Below, piece by piece: positions 8,510-17,402 of a stretch of 64,000 nt of DNA. The position numbers and the translations under genes are program-made. A model generated the notes under the pieces. That model worked only from the letters and a program-made list of their open reading frames with translations, did no database searches and was not told where the DNA came from. How positions within the stretch are numbered: position 1 is the stretch's first letter; the number at the start of each line of letters is the position of its first letter. Location: the NCBI RefSeq assembly GCF_000027125.1, contig NC_017626.1; one strand, 5' to 3'. The DNA comes from Escherichia coli 042. GTDB taxonomy: Bacteria; Pseudomonadota; Gammaproteobacteria; Enterobacterales; Enterobacteriaceae.

Positions 8510-10137
8510 TTATTCTTCGTCTTCGGTGTCTTCGTCGTAGTCAATATCGTCAGGCTGTTCTGAATCAGAGAGAACGTTTAGCGTAAAGCTATAGTCGTCC
8601 TGATCCCATTCGCATTTGCTCAAAATGGCACGCGGAATTTTTACCAGCGTCAGGTTAGGGAAGTCCGCGCCTTCAGTCATAAAGGCTTTGCAGCAAATCA
8701 GTAATGTACGTTCAGTTCCTACCTCTTCACTCAGAACTTTCAGTTGTTCATAAGCCAAAGAACCGGTAGTGACGTAGATGTGGTCAGTTTCGGTGCTGTA
8801 ACCGTGATTCCAGTATTGAGTCTGGCTTGGTGCATAGGTGAAGTTCATATGTTTGCACATGGCTTCAGCAAGCATTTCAGGATTGTAATATTTATTTATT
8901 ACCCAATTACCCCAAGTATCTTTTTTAAGCAATGAAGGTGCTAGACTCAAATAACGAAAACCTCCACCACCTTGCCAGCTTACAGATTTTGTAATACCGC
9001 CTAAATCTTTCCCATCAATCACTTTTTTCATACGCGGAACAATATGAGTCCGACAGTGGTCGCCTAATTCAACCATAATCCACTGACGCCCCATCTTTTG
9101 TGCTACGGCCCCTGTTGTGCCTGAACCAGCAAAGGAGTCTAGAACAAGATCACCATTGTCAGTTGCAATCTCCAGTATTTTTTTTATAAGAGCTTCCGGC
9201 TTAGGTGTATCAAATGCACTTATAGTAGGAATCACCTTCTTAATTTCGGCTTTTGATGTCCTGTTACTTCCAACTTCAGAATGAAACCATATCGTTTCTG
9301 GCGGTCTACCTGACGAACTATCAGCATATACACGAAAATATGGAGTCCAACCATTTCGTCCTTTCGACCAATCAATTCTCCATTTCTCCTGATCTATTTT
9401 TTGTACGCCCCAACGCAACGTCCATCAGTTCCATCTTGGCGCTTTGGAAAAATTTCTGTGCCATCGGGGGCAACAAGAGGGAAATACATTGTTGGGCGAT
9501 CTTCTCTTTTATCTGCTTGTCCCATTGCCCTTAGCGGTTTTAGGTAGTAAGGATTGCCGCTTGGATCTACTTTATCGTAATGGCTAGGTAGATCATTGAG
9601 GGACAGTGGTTGTCTTTTTACTTTGAATTTTGACTGATCTTTCGCGTACACTAATATGTGATCATGGCGAGAAGAGAAAAATGCAGCATCCATTCTTGGG
9701 CTATCGGATTTTTCCCAAATAACATTTGAAATAAAGTTATTCCTTCCGAATATTTCATCACAAAGACATTTTAAATAATGAACTTCGTGGTCATCAATTG
9801 TTATCCATATAGAGCCATCTTCAGATAATAAAGTGCGTAATAATTCTAACCGATCTCTGATCAAGCAAAGCCATAGAGAGTGTTCAAGTCCATCATCGTA
9901 ATGTGTAAAAGCACTTCCAGTATTATAAGGAGGGTCGATAAATATACACTTCACCTTCCCCGCATACTTCTGCTCCAGTGCCTTCAACGCCAGTAGATTA
10001 TCCCCATGAATCAGCAGATTCTCACTATCCGCATCACCATAAGATAACTCCTTATCTTCGAGCAGAATACGCGGCTCCAGACGAGGACGCTTATGCTTAC
10101 CAATCCAGTTAAGTTCTAATTTTTGCTTCGTTGACAT
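8510..10137 (-). pseudogene. mod: Type III R-M Mod methyltransferase (beta-class N6A/N4C), frameshifted in this sequence
   Basis: Two ORF-track pieces (9394..10137 and 8510..9418) carry IFIDPPYNTG (motif IV) then DSFAGSGTTG (motif I). The frames are joined if one copy of the tandem CAACG CAACG at plus 9411-9420 is removed (giving ...DGTDGRWGVQKIDQ...). Confidence 0.8.
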
Positions 10138-10146
10138 AATCTATTT

Positions 10147-12534
10147 TTATCCAATACGTGCTCGTGCGCGTTCCTGTTCACGGATCTGCGCCTGAATTTG
10201 TGTATAAAGCTGCGCCTGTTCATTATCGCGATCGGTCGCGGTCACGACCAGTGCGTAAGGCTCCTGCTCGCTGCTGAATGCTTCGCCCCAGTCTCTGTCC
10301 TGACGGGTAACAACAATAAACCATTTTTCATCCGGGTTACGCTGGCGAAAAGTCCAAATCGACGACTGTACCGTCCCGCGTTCCCGCTGTTGGGCTGATA
10401 CAACACGGTTAGTCTGGGCATCATCGGAGCGGGTTTCCGTCTCACTCTGCGTCTGGTGATTAAAACTGGCCTGCACTTCATCCAGCGAGCGGCCCTTAAC
10501 CAGCCGGAAACCGATCCGTGTGGCAGTATAATCCAGCCGGGTGGTACGCACGGCGGGTGAATATGCCAGCGTAACGCGGACTTCACGGGTTGCACGCTGC
10601 GATCGTAAAAAAGAAGCCGGGAAGGGCAGTTCAAAAAATTGGTGCGCGTTATTTTCTATCTGCTCTTCACATCGCATGACCACCACATTTTCAGAAGAAC
10701 GATATAACGCATCTTCATCAATGATGCCGTAGCCTGTCACGTCGCGCTCAATCTCCCGGTTTCTCGTTGCAGGCGCATTTCTATAGCTTTCTCTCATGGC
10801 CTGCGGAAAAGCCTGCGTCATCTCCTGAGAAACAGAAGCATGATTGACCAGCATTGCCCGCAGCATATTGGCAGACATTTCCGGGTATTCATTTAGCAGT
10901 CGACCCGCCAGATGTGTGATATACGGCGCGGCAAAGCTGGTGCCGCTGAGTTCTTTAAACAGCGTATTACCCTGAAACTGGTGATGGCAGCTTAATACGC
11001 CCAGACCGCGCATATGTGCCTGCCATTGCCCTTGCCGAACGTTGGAAGCGACATTGCCACCGTGCGCTACAACGTCAGGTTTAAACGCGCCTTTTACCGA
11101 CGGGCCGTGTCGGGTAAAAGGCGACGGTTGGTTTTCCGTTGCCGGGCTGAGATGCTGAATATCGCCAGGCCTACGCTGCGCATCCAACGTTGCGTTATGT
11201 CTGGCGACGCTGCCCACTGTCAGTACGTTCAGCGCCGGAGCCGGATCGATGATTACGCTGTCCTCATGCAACAGGTAGTCAGGATATTCATCCCGCCAGC
11301 TATTTTGCGGCACCGGAGGATCGTCGCTGCCTGCGAAATTCCCCGCAGAGACGACAAACAGTACATTATATTGCCGCGCCAGCGTATCTAACAGATACGC
11401 CATACCGCGAATATGTTTGCCGTCATAGGGCGCATTAGCATTCCCCAGCGACAGATTGAAAATGCGGCAACCGAGATCGGTAAAATACGCGACGGCGGCT
11501 GTTAGTGTGCTTTCAATCGTTTCGGCATTGAATTCAGCCCGCTCGTTCAGTACTTTCCCGTTATACAGCCATAGCTGCGGCTGCCAGAAATTGCTCTGGT
11601 TACAGGCTTCAACGTCGCCATACAGAGCAATACTCGCTACGGCGGTGCCATGCCCCTCTTGATCAAACGCATCCTGATTGGGAATAAAGCTGGCGCTTTC
11701 AGCAATGGCGGCACTTAACAGAGGGTGATTGGTGTTGATGCCGCTATCCAGAATACAGACTCTGGCCGCATTTACCGCAGGCGAAATCAGATGCTCTGGA
11801 AGTGTATTGATGTCCCGGTTAATTTGTTGATAGCTAATGCCGCTGGACGGTGGCAAATCAACCAACCTGACGTCCCGATGCGCTAACAGGTATTCTGCTT
11901 GCGCGAGCGAAACCTCTATCCGGTACATCAACAGGCTGTCCAGATTGACTTTATCCCGCCAGAGAATCCCCTGCTCTCTGAGCCAATTTTCAAAACGGGT
12001 ATACAGGTCGATACGTCTGGGGTGATGCGCCACATCGACTGGCCAGAGCTCCACATCCAGATTAAAGCGTTCCGCTACAGGAAAACCATAGCGCCGGAGT
12101 GCCCAGCTTTTACGATCTTCCGCCGACCAGCCGTCAATGCCGTCAAGCGCTTCGAGAATATTCCTGTAGGTTAGGTCCGTACGGGGAAGCCCCAGTTGCG
12201 CCAGATGGGTTTCGAAGGTTGTCAGACCCTGCTCATTAGTGAAAACGATACAGACCTGTTTACCTTCCTGACTGATGAACTCCACGCCGTGATGTATCAA
12301 TGCTGAAAAATTCATTGTGCCGCTGTAGTTCAGCTTGAGGATATAGCGCCCGTCATCGGCGCTGCCGGGTACTTGTGCCAGCGTTGGGCGCAAGGTATGG
12401 AGTTGCGTCAACAGCATTTGCCCGTGCTGGCGTAAATCGCCCCTGCGAATACGGGGCATATTGACTCTGCGGGTCCGTCGGTCGTTTTGAAGTGGTGCTT
12501 TGGTAATCGTTAGATGCTGATAATTCGCCGTCAT
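10147..12534 (-). CDS. Subtilisin-like S8 serine peptidase with ~250-aa N-terminal extension (IetS-like)
   Basis: 795 aa; catalytic D (VCILDSGIN), H (HGTAVASIA), S (GTSFAAPYITH); starts 9 nt after the ATPase stop. Confidence 0.8.
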   Translation of the reverse strand: MTANYQHLTITKAPLQNDRRTRRVNMPRIRRGDLRQHGQMLLTQLHTLRPTLAQVPGSADDGRYILKLNYSGTMNFSALIHHGVEFISQEGKQVCIVFTNEQGLTTFETHLAQLGLPRTDLTYRNILEALDGIDGWSAEDRKSWALRRYGFPVAERFNLDVELWPVDVAHHPRRIDLYTRFENWLREQGILWRDKVNLDSLLMYRIEVSLAQAEYLLAHRDVRLVDLPPSSGISYQQINRDINTLPEHLISPAVNAARVCILDSGINTNHPLLSAAIAESASFIPNQDAFDQEGHGTAVASIALYGDVEACNQSNFWQPQLWLYNGKVLNERAEFNAETIESTLTAAVAYFTDLGCRIFNLSLGNANAPYDGKHIRGMAYLLDTLARQYNVLFVVSAGNFAGSDDPPVPQNSWRDEYPDYLLHEDSVIIDPAPALNVLTVGSVARHNATLDAQRRPGDIQHLSPATENQPSPFTRHGPSVKGAFKPDVVAHGGNVASNVRQGQWQAHMRGLGVLSCHHQFQGNTLFKELSGTSFAAPYITHLAGRLLNEYPEMSANMLRAMLVNHASVSQEMTQAFPQAMRESYRNAPATRNREIERDVTGYGIIDEDALYRSSENVVVMRCEEQIENNAHQFFELPFPASFLRSQRATREVRVTLAYSPAVRTTRLDYTATRIGFRLVKGRSLDEVQASFNHQTQSETETRSDDAQTNRVVSAQQRERGTVQSSIWTFRQRNPDEKWFIVVTRQDRDWGEAFSSEQEPYALVVTATDRDNEQAQLYTQIQAQIREQERARARIG

Positions 12535-16416: not shown

Positions 16417-16698
16417 AGAGGGGGAGGGGAGCGCGACCGTATTTTACTGATATATGAACCGGGTTGCTAATCTGGAAGATGGCTCGCATTACATCCCCTT
16501 GTCGTTCACCGGGCTTCGCGGTCTCTTTTCCTCGCGTCTGCAAAATCAGGCGCCGGGCTTGACCTCCTGAACACTCCTTAGTGACGACACAATGGCGCGC
16601 TCGCGCCTTTTTTGTGCCGGTGCTCGGCTACACCTCAATGGCGGACCGGGCGGGGGCGTCGCAAGGCGCGCTGGATGGACTGTTCTGAGGAGGCAGGA

Positions 16699-17402
16699 AT
16701 GAGACGATTACCGCTGATGGTGGGCGTGATAGTGGGCGTAATGCTGGCTGTCGGCTGCCATGACCGTAGGGCTGGTGTGAGGACGCTGCTGGGCGATGGC
16801 GTGGAGCAATGGGGGCAGAAGTTGCCTTACGACCACTGGGAATTCAATTTTTTTACCCGAAAAATCTGCCGGCACTGGTGACAATGGTGTATCTGGAGGA
16901 CGGGGATATCCGGGAGAGCTTTTTCCGGCGACTGGATCCGACTGAACCCAGTCAGAGCAGTGTGGGAAAATGGAGCCAGCACGTAGGCGGTTTTTTAGCC
17001 AGTTTTAATATTGGCAAGGCGCTGCCTGTCAGGATGACGGTATGCTGGGACTCAGTTATCGATAAAAAGGCGTATGAGACGGAGATCTGGTTCAGCCGGG
17101 ATACGTGGCAGCAGATGCTGACTGCCTATCCTGATACTTATCGTCCGGGAAAAATATATTACCGAAACAAAATGATTATTGGCCTGCCCCCCGGTGGTAA
17201 AGTCAGGGTATGGTTAAAAGACAATCGTAATCCTGTTGTACTCCAGAATCCTGCCCGACAGTTCACCCTGACGGGAGATGATATGCTGATATGCAAAAAT
17301 GTTCCCAACAAGATTGATTTCAGTTACATCAAGGCTAACGGTTACGATCCATTTATCCGCGATTTTATCAAGGAAAAGCCCTATCCGTATGGTCACTGGT
17401 AG
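16699..17402 (+). pseudogene. Putative lipoprotein, frameshifted at a T7 homopolymer
   Basis: N-terminus MRRLPLMVGVIVGVMLAVGC (lipobox LAVGC); the two overlapping ORF-track frames (16612..16881, 16809..17402) join if the T7 run at 16848-16854 is T8 (...HWEFNFFYPKNLPALV...). Confidence 0.5.

Follow-up and report, generated by a model that had tools for sequence, protein, structure and literature searches.

The question raised by this locus is whether three frameshifts that cluster in an island of Escherichia coli 042 are genuine and, if so, how old they are and why they arose. The window analyzed here is a 64,000-nucleotide stretch of DNA from this strain (contig NC_017626.1), in which the initial annotation had placed frameshifts in a Type III methyltransferase gene (mod), an SNF2 helicase gene and a lipoprotein gene; all three were found at the places described. 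It is very probable that these frameshifts are genuine, vertically inherited 1 bp deletions in the horizontally acquired pheU island, that two of them disable modules of an anti-phage operon and that ordinary decay is the most likely background to their formation.

Organization of the island and its three lesions

The tRNA-Phe gene at the pheU position (20842–20917, minus strand), which adjoins yjdC, is the attachment site of the island, and a gene for a P4-type tyrosine integrase (19382–20644, minus strand) lies at the island edge. A 117 kb pheU island has been described in EAEC 042 (PMC2808357); the island genes considered here are not mentioned in that genome paper or its supplements, in which no pseudogene list was found. 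Five genes, identified by PADLOC and NCBIfam matches, follow one another in the order ietH–ietA–ietS–mod–res, which is also kept in Salmonella and Citrobacter. Three are intact and lie on the minus strand: ietA, encoding a 326-residue AAA ATPase (12544–13524, the coordinates being those of a RefSeq CDS carried over from locus L001; PADLOC IetA, E = 3.9e-105), ietS, encoding a 795-residue S8 serine peptidase (10147–12534; PADLOC IetS PDLC02198, 1206 bits), and res, encoding the 956-residue Type III restriction subunit (5637–8507; PADLOC REase_III PDLC03648, 2117 bits). The start of res follows mod by 3 nt, and a Pfam ResIII domain is recognized in its product. Both ietS and res are identical in the window and in strain BR1220. 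Remnants of IS elements adjoin the frameshifted genes of the island.

The mod pseudogene (8510–10137, minus strand) measures 1,628 nt compared with 1,629 nt in the intact state, and two overlapping minus-strand ORFs at 9394–10137 (247 aa) and 8510–9418 (302 aa) stand in place of a single 542-residue gene. This lesion had been read as a 5 bp duplication; alignment to BR1220 gives a 1 bp deletion instead (CCAACGCCAACG to CCAACGCAACG). A coding-strand G is missing from cgt tgG cgt tgg at 9415–9416, shifting the frame after codon ∼240, and the plus strand reads CCCCAACGCCAACG in the intact BR1220 allele and CCCCAACGCAACG in the window. The tandem CAACGCAACG that suggested a duplication is a by-product of the deletion, and the misreading arose because the removal of 5 bp would likewise restore the frame. 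The site is a CC dinucleotide within a two-copy hexamer and contains no homopolymer run. The intact allele of relatives is a full-length match to MTase_III (PADLOC, E = 9e-292), whereas in the window the deletion puts DPPY (residue 68) and FAGSG (residue 336) of Mod on separate fragments.

The SNF2 helicase gene, ietH (DrmD-like; 13550–16398, minus strand), is a 949-residue gene split at codon 76. As the initial annotation had indicated, the frameshift lies at an A4/T4 run (16172–16175), where the A5 of the coding strand of intact alleles has become A4. The split leaves an 84-codon stub, which keeps Walker A (Lys65), and an 865-residue ORF, which keeps the DEAH box (Asp165). The stop codon of the shifted frame overlaps an in-frame TTG at 16147, from which re-initiated translation might produce an IetH shortened at its N-terminus.

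The third lesion affects a non-defence gene, that of a DUF2931 lipoprotein (16699–17402, plus strand). The signal peptide and lipobox are encoded by an ORF at 16699–16881 and the DUF2931 domain by a second ORF, in a different frame, at 16809–17402. The T7 run at 16848–16854 that had been singled out proves to be T8 in intact alleles: homologues in Leclercia P0042 (233 aa) and E. coli CFSAN004176 (a 705 nt CDS) read EFNFFYPKNLP across the T8 run, and the span is 722 bp in strain A24 and in plasmid copies versus 721 bp here. In relatives, the RefSeq annotation of this locus shows two overlapping CDS.

Authenticity, age and probable order of the deletions

The mod and ietH deletions occur together in eight independent assemblies besides the window, and the ietH lesion alone occurs in one more. 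The ietH lesion is thus found at nine independent loci (L003–L006 and L008–L012), while the mod lesion is present in L003–L006, L008–L010 and L012 and absent from L001, L002 and L011. The eight loci with both lesions come from different samples and match the window at 100% identity over 5200–18200, or over the part of it that they cover. These lesion-bearing sequences come from isolate assemblies at NCBI, metagenome scaffolds at ENA and assemblies of SRA runs in Logan, all compared at the assembly level. In addition, the exact 247-residue Mod fragment is recorded for 166 blocks of the indexed assembly collection, and it was seen on at least 99 contigs.

These identical deletions confirm that the lesions are real and bear most directly on the possibility that short repeats of the source genome were misread or misassembled. 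Such an error could be suspected given that homopolymers occupy two of the three sites (A5 and T8), although a long homopolymer is present at only one of the three, and given that the mod and ietH lesions appear in none of the RefSeq complete genomes with the island among the matches listed: over 9300–16300, all 60 were 2 bp longer than the window. Exact matches to the window would have ranked first in that 60-row listing, and no record sharing both lesions was found in the complete-genome E. coli collection among the matches listed. However, the lesions are not confined to one assembly; they recur identically in nine independent samples from three data sources, and the mod lesion falls in a CC dinucleotide and not in a homopolymer run. 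Furthermore, the chromosome of EAEC 042, the probable source genome, was finished from 8× Sanger reads (PMC2808357). An artefact is therefore extremely improbable, and this explanation can be regarded as effectively refuted.

The absence of similar lesions from the core region had been put forward as an argument for their reality. The core is indeed clean: all 41 CDS from yjdC (dicD) to purA are of the expected length and can be aligned in full to their counterparts in BEC1-S17-ESBL-09, with no gaps and no stops, and 38.6 kb of core coding sequence contains 163 runs of at least five bases and no indels. The clustering in the island also holds. Under an even distribution of lesions over coding bases, the probability that all three would fall in the island is ∼0.012, and the probability of lesions in at least three of eight island CDS is ∼6e-4 at the published pseudogene rate of EAEC 042 (110 chromosomal pseudogenes among 4,810 CDS; PMC2808357); both values are post hoc. 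The deciding evidence, however, is the recurrence of identical lesions across independent assemblies and not the condition of the core.

The three lesions do not go back to one event. At least 43 complete island-bearing E. coli genomes have the T8 to T7 deletion, and T8 alleles occur in slightly more divergent island copies (99.6–99.9% identity), which fits a single old event. This deletion is an old one that nearly all E. coli island copies have inherited, whereas the mod and ietH deletions are recent and specific to a 042-like lineage. The window differs from BR1220 by two indels and one SNP over 5200–18200, and by two indels and three SNPs over 4000–19500 (15.5 kb). A related strain with an identical island and intact frames had been expected to speak against the lesions. 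Strain A24 is such a relative, with intact lengths at all three sites; this does not make the lesions unreal, and shows only that they are derived. Since one assembly (L011; Logan SRR23880901) combines the ietH lesion with an intact mod and matches the window everywhere else, ietH probably broke before mod, although this order is read from a single Logan contig, the consensus of which may derive from a mixed sample.

Phase variation is classically associated with the Type III mod genes of Haemophilus, Neisseria and Helicobacter, and a reversible switch of this kind (a phasevarion) in mod and its neighbours, driven by slipped-strand mispairing, would also account for frameshifted alleles. The co-occurrence of T7 and T8 alleles and of one intact-mod haplotype among near-identical islands is compatible with such switching. 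However, Tandem Repeats Finder detected no simple-sequence repeat tract at any of the lesions, the lesions are fixed in eight of the nine lineage assemblies while at least 52 other genomes are fixed for the intact state, and the restriction of T8 to more divergent copies fits a single old event. With no repeat tract at its lesion and one allele in eight of nine lineage assemblies, mod was rejected as a phase-variable gene, and phase variation in general is considered to be highly unlikely.

It is likewise scarcely credible that programmed ribosomal frameshifting or slippage during transcription still allows the split genes to give functional proteins. Slippage could in principle occur on the T7 and A4 runs, and the overlap of the shifted-frame stop of ietH with the in-frame TTG could be taken in the same sense. 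However, both runs fall short of the lengths at which efficient slippage is known; moreover, in other strains and genera each homologue is one uninterrupted reading frame, and a conserved frameshift signal is lacking.

Predicted consequences and possible causes of the lesions

Loss of function of both ietH and mod is expected from the separation of their motifs. In IetH, the A5 to A4 deletion parts Walker A from the DEAH box and should abolish the ATPase needed by ietHAS. In mod, the deletion leaves the catalytic DPPY and the AdoMet-binding motif on different ORFs. The Res subunit of Type III systems works only in complex with Mod, and both restriction and methylation should therefore be lost with no self-restriction. 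The proposed order would place the ietH deletion first and the mod deletion second, both being very recent, and the second was perhaps tolerated because the operon was already crippled.

Relaxed selection or counter-selection had been suggested as the cause, and either remains plausible; ordinary loss of dispensable accessory genes is the most likely one. As a separate observation that runs against this explanation, an ietH frameshift is tolerated beside intact ietA and ietS despite the reported cytotoxicity of ietH mutants.

Selection for the lesions, and not mere tolerance of them, is possible but doubtful; the cost of the cassette would then lie, for example, in autoimmunity, in IetS toxicity or in a block on the uptake of plasmids and phages. 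Indels outnumber substitutions, with two indels against one or two SNPs in 13 kb. If the indel rate is taken as ∼10% of the substitution rate, the Poisson probability is ∼0.005–0.02, which is a poor fit to neutral decay and leaves room for selection. In addition, mod has been independently disrupted by IS600 in CFSAN004176 and by IS1 in GCA_008388725.1, a contig break occurs at mod codon 287 in at least 24 assemblies, and mutant ietH is cytotoxic upon induction of ietHAS (PMC13069673). On the other hand, the survey of truncated alleles covered only the mod and SNF2 protein clusters, so the apparent excess of disruptions in mod is not a fair comparison with ietA, ietS and res. Furthermore, these three genes are still intact in the window, and the operon is of intact length in 52 of 53 complete genomes among the matches listed, at an identity of at least 99.8%, which argues that the locus is not decaying in general.

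An extension of this idea is that ietH–ietA–ietS–mod–res form one functionally coupled defence unit and not two adjacent systems, in which case the loss of ietH in the 042 lineage would have made the rest costly, and the later mod knock-out and the independent IS disruptions of mod in other strains would be compensatory or adaptive and not neutral. The reported cytotoxicity of ietH mutants is consistent with such a cost, but this proposal as a whole is improbable.

The island frameshifts should be annotated as true pseudogenes and not 'corrected'. The lineage of 042, the prototype enteroaggregative strain, is probably without two anti-phage functions, ietHAS and Type III restriction–modification, that its relatives 55989 and O104:H4 retain. 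These losses could influence how susceptible the lineage is to phages, how its methylome compares with others and how readily it is transformed. For studies of ietHAS, it would also provide naturally occurring null alleles of ietH alone and of ietH together with mod.

Comparison with known systems

The system closest to the upstream part of the operon is ietHAS (Liu-DS4), in which the toxin–antitoxin-like anti-phage system ietAS is joined by the SNF2 helicase IetH (NAR 2026, PMC13069673). The window has the same three-gene order of SNF2 helicase, AAA ATPase and S8 protease, and Lys65 (Walker A) and Asp165 (DEAH) of the intact allele, compared by description, are the residues mutated in that study. 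Both were required for protection, and ATPase-dead ietH renders induced ietHAS cytotoxic (PMC13069673). The carriage of ∼1.3% of complete E. coli genomes found here (73 of 5,426) compares with >1.5% in the same report. The window differs in that its ietH is frameshifted at codon 76, which leaves Lys65 and Asp165 on different ORFs and no intact IetH. The module is also always followed here by Type III mod–res in the same operon, on which the main text of PMC13069673 is silent.

The downstream pair resembles Type III restriction–modification systems of the EcoP1I/EcoP15I type. Mod has the β-class motif order, with DPPY before FxGxG, the intact mod allele and res give full-length PADLOC MTase_III and REase_III matches, and mod lies immediately upstream of a helicase-type res. 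In the window, the Res subunit is present, whereas mod is a pseudogene and no longer encodes both motifs of this N6-adenine methyltransferase on a single polypeptide, as the intact allele of relatives does; the pair also differs in belonging to a five-gene operon that includes ietHAS. Like the mod genes of phasevarions in Haemophilus, Neisseria and Helicobacter, the mod of the window is turned off by a frameshift next to an intact res, but it has no repeat tract, shows no sign of reversibility and carries a lesion that is fixed in its lineage.

Class 1 DISARM, the helicase of which is DrmD, was also considered, since DrmD is the best named family match of the SNF2 protein (PADLOC, E = 3.7e-201). 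Membership was rejected: the NCBIfam DrmD_b score is 661.9 bits, below the cut-off of 950, and no DrmA, DrmB (DUF1998) or DrmC (PLD) was found near ietH in the window or at loci L013–L017.

As a process, the formation of lineage-specific pseudogenes observed here is of an already known kind. The pseudogenes of E. coli accessory regions, including the 110 chromosomal pseudogenes of EAEC 042 (PMC2808357), present the same single-base frameshifts, IS remnants and clean core, and the lesions of the pheU island show no substantive difference from them.

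Frameshifted genes of the island operon

Five closely packed genes were identified on the minus strand at 5637-16398 by ORF analysis of the window, and the same five genes are present in the RefSeq annotation of near-identical islands: an SNF2-related protein (949 aa intact in relatives), an AAA ATPase (326 aa), an S8 peptidase (795 aa), a site-specific DNA methyltransferase (542 aa intact in relatives) and a DEAD/DEAH helicase (956 aa). PADLOC assigned these as a DrmD-like SNF2 helicase, IetA (E = 3.9e-105), IetS (1206 bits), MTase_III (mod, E = 9e-292) and REase_III (res, 2117 bits). 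In the window, ietA, ietS and res are undamaged. The methyltransferase gene consists of two overlapping minus-strand ORFs (9394-10137 and 8510-9418), and the SNF2 gene, on the same strand, of an 84-codon stub and an 865-aa ORF (13550-16147). Two plus-strand ORFs, one encoding a lipoprotein signal peptide (16699-16881) and one DUF2931 (16809-17402), overlap in different frames.

The lesions were mapped by alignment of window positions 4000-19500 to strain BR1220, from which the window differs over 15.5 kb by two gaps and three substitutions and nothing else. In mod, one C is missing from the window at 9415/9416 (intact CCCCAACGCCAACG; window CCCCAACGCAACG), and in the SNF2 gene the window has T4 at 16172-16175 where BR1220 has T5 (A4 versus A5 on the coding strand). 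The DUF2931 gene of the window has a T7 run where intact homologues, found in Leclercia P0042 (233 aa), E. coli P0036 and CFSAN004176 (705-nt CDS), have T8 and read ...EFNFFYPKNLP... across the run. Each of the three lesions is thus a single-base deletion. The frameshifts described for these genes in the initial annotation were confirmed by the ORFs and by alignment to intact alleles, but the 5-bp duplication that it proposed in mod was not; the tandem CAACGCAACG arises from a 1-bp deletion within a two-copy hexamer. Programmed frameshifting, in which the split frames would still be read as one product, is unlikely, as the homologues are single ORFs.

Independent occurrence and age of the deletions

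The mod and SNF2 lesions are real. Searches of the public assembly collection found the exact 247-aa frameshifted Mod fragment in 166 blocks (99 contigs) and the 865-aa SNF2 fragment in 145 blocks. Both deletions occur in eight loci from different samples, each of which matches the island of the window at 100% identity: three from NCBI (GCA_029362025.1, GCA_042602895.1 and GCA_027979275.1), three from ENA metagenomes (ERZ28636714, ERZ28598688 and ERZ28637364) and two from Logan (ERR2720672 and SRR18207507). One of these loci (L003) departs from the window sequence left of 5122, so it is more than the same genome assembled a second time. Sequencing error was ruled out by the same lesions in independent assemblies, whose identical deletions bear out the earlier view that the island lesions are genuine. 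The claim that they stand beside a clean core also held: translations of the BEC1-S17-ESBL-09 CDS from yjdC (dicD) to purA were compared with the window, and 41 of 41 aligned at full length with no gaps or stops, in a stretch containing 163 homopolymer runs of at least five bases and 12 of at least seven. Enteroaggregative E. coli 042 was sequenced with 8x Sanger chemistry and finished, and its published description records 110 pseudogenes in the chromosome and an island of 117 kb at pheU (PMC2808357); the island in the window abuts tRNA-Phe beside yjdC, which is the pheU position.

The operon was found in 73 of the 5,426 complete E. coli genomes searched, a collection that does not contain the 042 genome itself; 65 of the 73 copies match the window at 99% identity or more. 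The counterpart of 9300-16300 spans 7,003 bp in 60 of the 60 matches listed (7,001 bp in the window), and the whole operon spans 10,793 bp in 52 of the 53 matches listed at 99.8% identity or above (10,791 bp in the window). Because the spans of relatives are 2 bp longer, the mod and SNF2 deletions are derived and limited to the 042-like lineage. The absence of any further substitution between the lesion-bearing assemblies shows that both deletions arose recently. Reversible switching by phase variation is unlikely, as there are no repeat tracts at the lesions and the alleles are fixed. A Logan assembly (SRR23880901) carries the SNF2 deletion with an intact mod and is otherwise identical to the window, which suggests, from one contig that may be a mixed-sample consensus, that SNF2 was hit before mod. 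The DUF2931 lesion is old, and the gene that it affects does not belong to the defence operon. The T7 allele occurs in at least 43 genomes, 55989, O104:H4 and E24377A among them (matches listed spanning 721 bp, annotated as two overlapping CDS), and T8 is kept in strain A24, in CFSAN004176 and in plasmid copies of 87.7% identity.

Island mobility and origin of the lesions

The island flanks (1-5600 and 17400-19300) are a mix of mobile elements and fragments, with an intact IS110-family transposase gene (1745-2821), an IS3-family fragment (3040-3633), IS30 (3764-4915), an IS1 copy (near 18270-18970) and a 48-aa replication-initiator remnant, which shows that general decay and rearrangement surround the operon. 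The same island, with the same integrase, lies at pheU, beside yjdC, in the window (19382-20917), and at pheV, beside yqgA and speC, in BR1220 (18385-19920 of that locus, flanks examined). Island identity between the window and other hosts is at least 99.9%, whereas their cores are less close (99.6% in the best core match, itself a carrier of the cassette); this indicates recent horizontal spread between the two tRNA-Phe sites. BEC1-S17-ESBL-09, the closest core match, has other integrase-linked cargo (phosphoethanolamine transferase) at pheU (43549-45901 of its locus) and an intact five-gene cassette elsewhere in the chromosome.

Pseudogene enrichment is expected in horizontally acquired islands, and this one holds several IS remnants and gene fragments in the RefSeq annotation. 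The data leave room for selection on the lesions rather than neutral decay: two indels against one or two substitutions exceed what a neutral indel-to-substitution ratio of about 0.1 predicts (P ~0.005-0.02, with small numbers and post hoc), and further carriers have breaks of their own in mod, namely an IS600 insertion in CFSAN004176, an IS1 insertion in GCA_008388725.1 and, in at least 24 assemblies, a probable repeat insertion at codon 287 (seen as a contig break). However, the operon is kept intact in nearly all complete genomes (the same 52 of 53 listed), and the survey of truncated alleles took in only the mod and SNF2 clusters. The disrupted mod copies were located at L021 3381-6276 (IS600), L020 6001-7050 (IS1) and L018/L019 6001-6863 (codon 287), and the adjoining SNF2, IetA and IetS genes are intact. 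In a Salmonella locus (L014 13866-16252, Logan SRR14466169), an independent lesion in a different gene of the cassette breaks ietS into ORFs of 380 and 419 aa. The explanation is an ordinary one: genes of a known defence cassette have become pseudogenes in one lineage, next to an older, unrelated pseudogene (DUF2931).

Predicted consequences and relation to ietHAS and DISARM

Loss of the IetH ATPase and of Type III restriction-modification is predicted from the sequence. The ietH frameshift at codon 76 parts K65 from D165, so that any product would lack a complete ATPase, and the mod frameshift near codon 240 parts DPPY (68) from FAGSG (336). Because Type III Res works only when complexed with Mod, a mod knock-out would abolish restriction and methylation without self-restriction, and would thus be a safe route to losing the Type III system.

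The ietHAS system, reported in 2026, is the ietAS system plus a DrmD-like SNF2 helicase, IetH, in which K65A (Walker A) or D165A (DEAH) led to loss of protection against T7; furthermore, the induced ietH-mutant system was cytotoxic (PMC13069673). Given this cytotoxicity, an ietH frameshift beside intact ietAS would be expected to be costly. The 042 lineage stably carries such a frameshift alongside intact ietA and ietS, a tolerance that might be due to polarity or to low native expression.

The intact allele of the SNF2 protein has the Walker A lysine at 65 and the DEAH aspartate at 165, and since these coincide with the residues mutated in that study, the protein is identified as IetH. Compared with DISARM DrmD, it scores 662 bits, under the NCBIfam cut-off of 950. 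The main text of the ietHAS paper (PMC13069673) makes no mention of Type III or methyltransferase genes. In the window and in the loci compared with it (L013-L017), the mod-res pair directly follows ietH-ietA-ietS every time in one compact operon, which lies beside a P4-type integrase in each of E. coli, Salmonella enterica and Citrobacter braakii; the five genes keep their order and spacing in the latter two. The order of SNF2 helicase, IetA and IetS in the window is that of ietHAS, and the Type III pair comes after these three genes.
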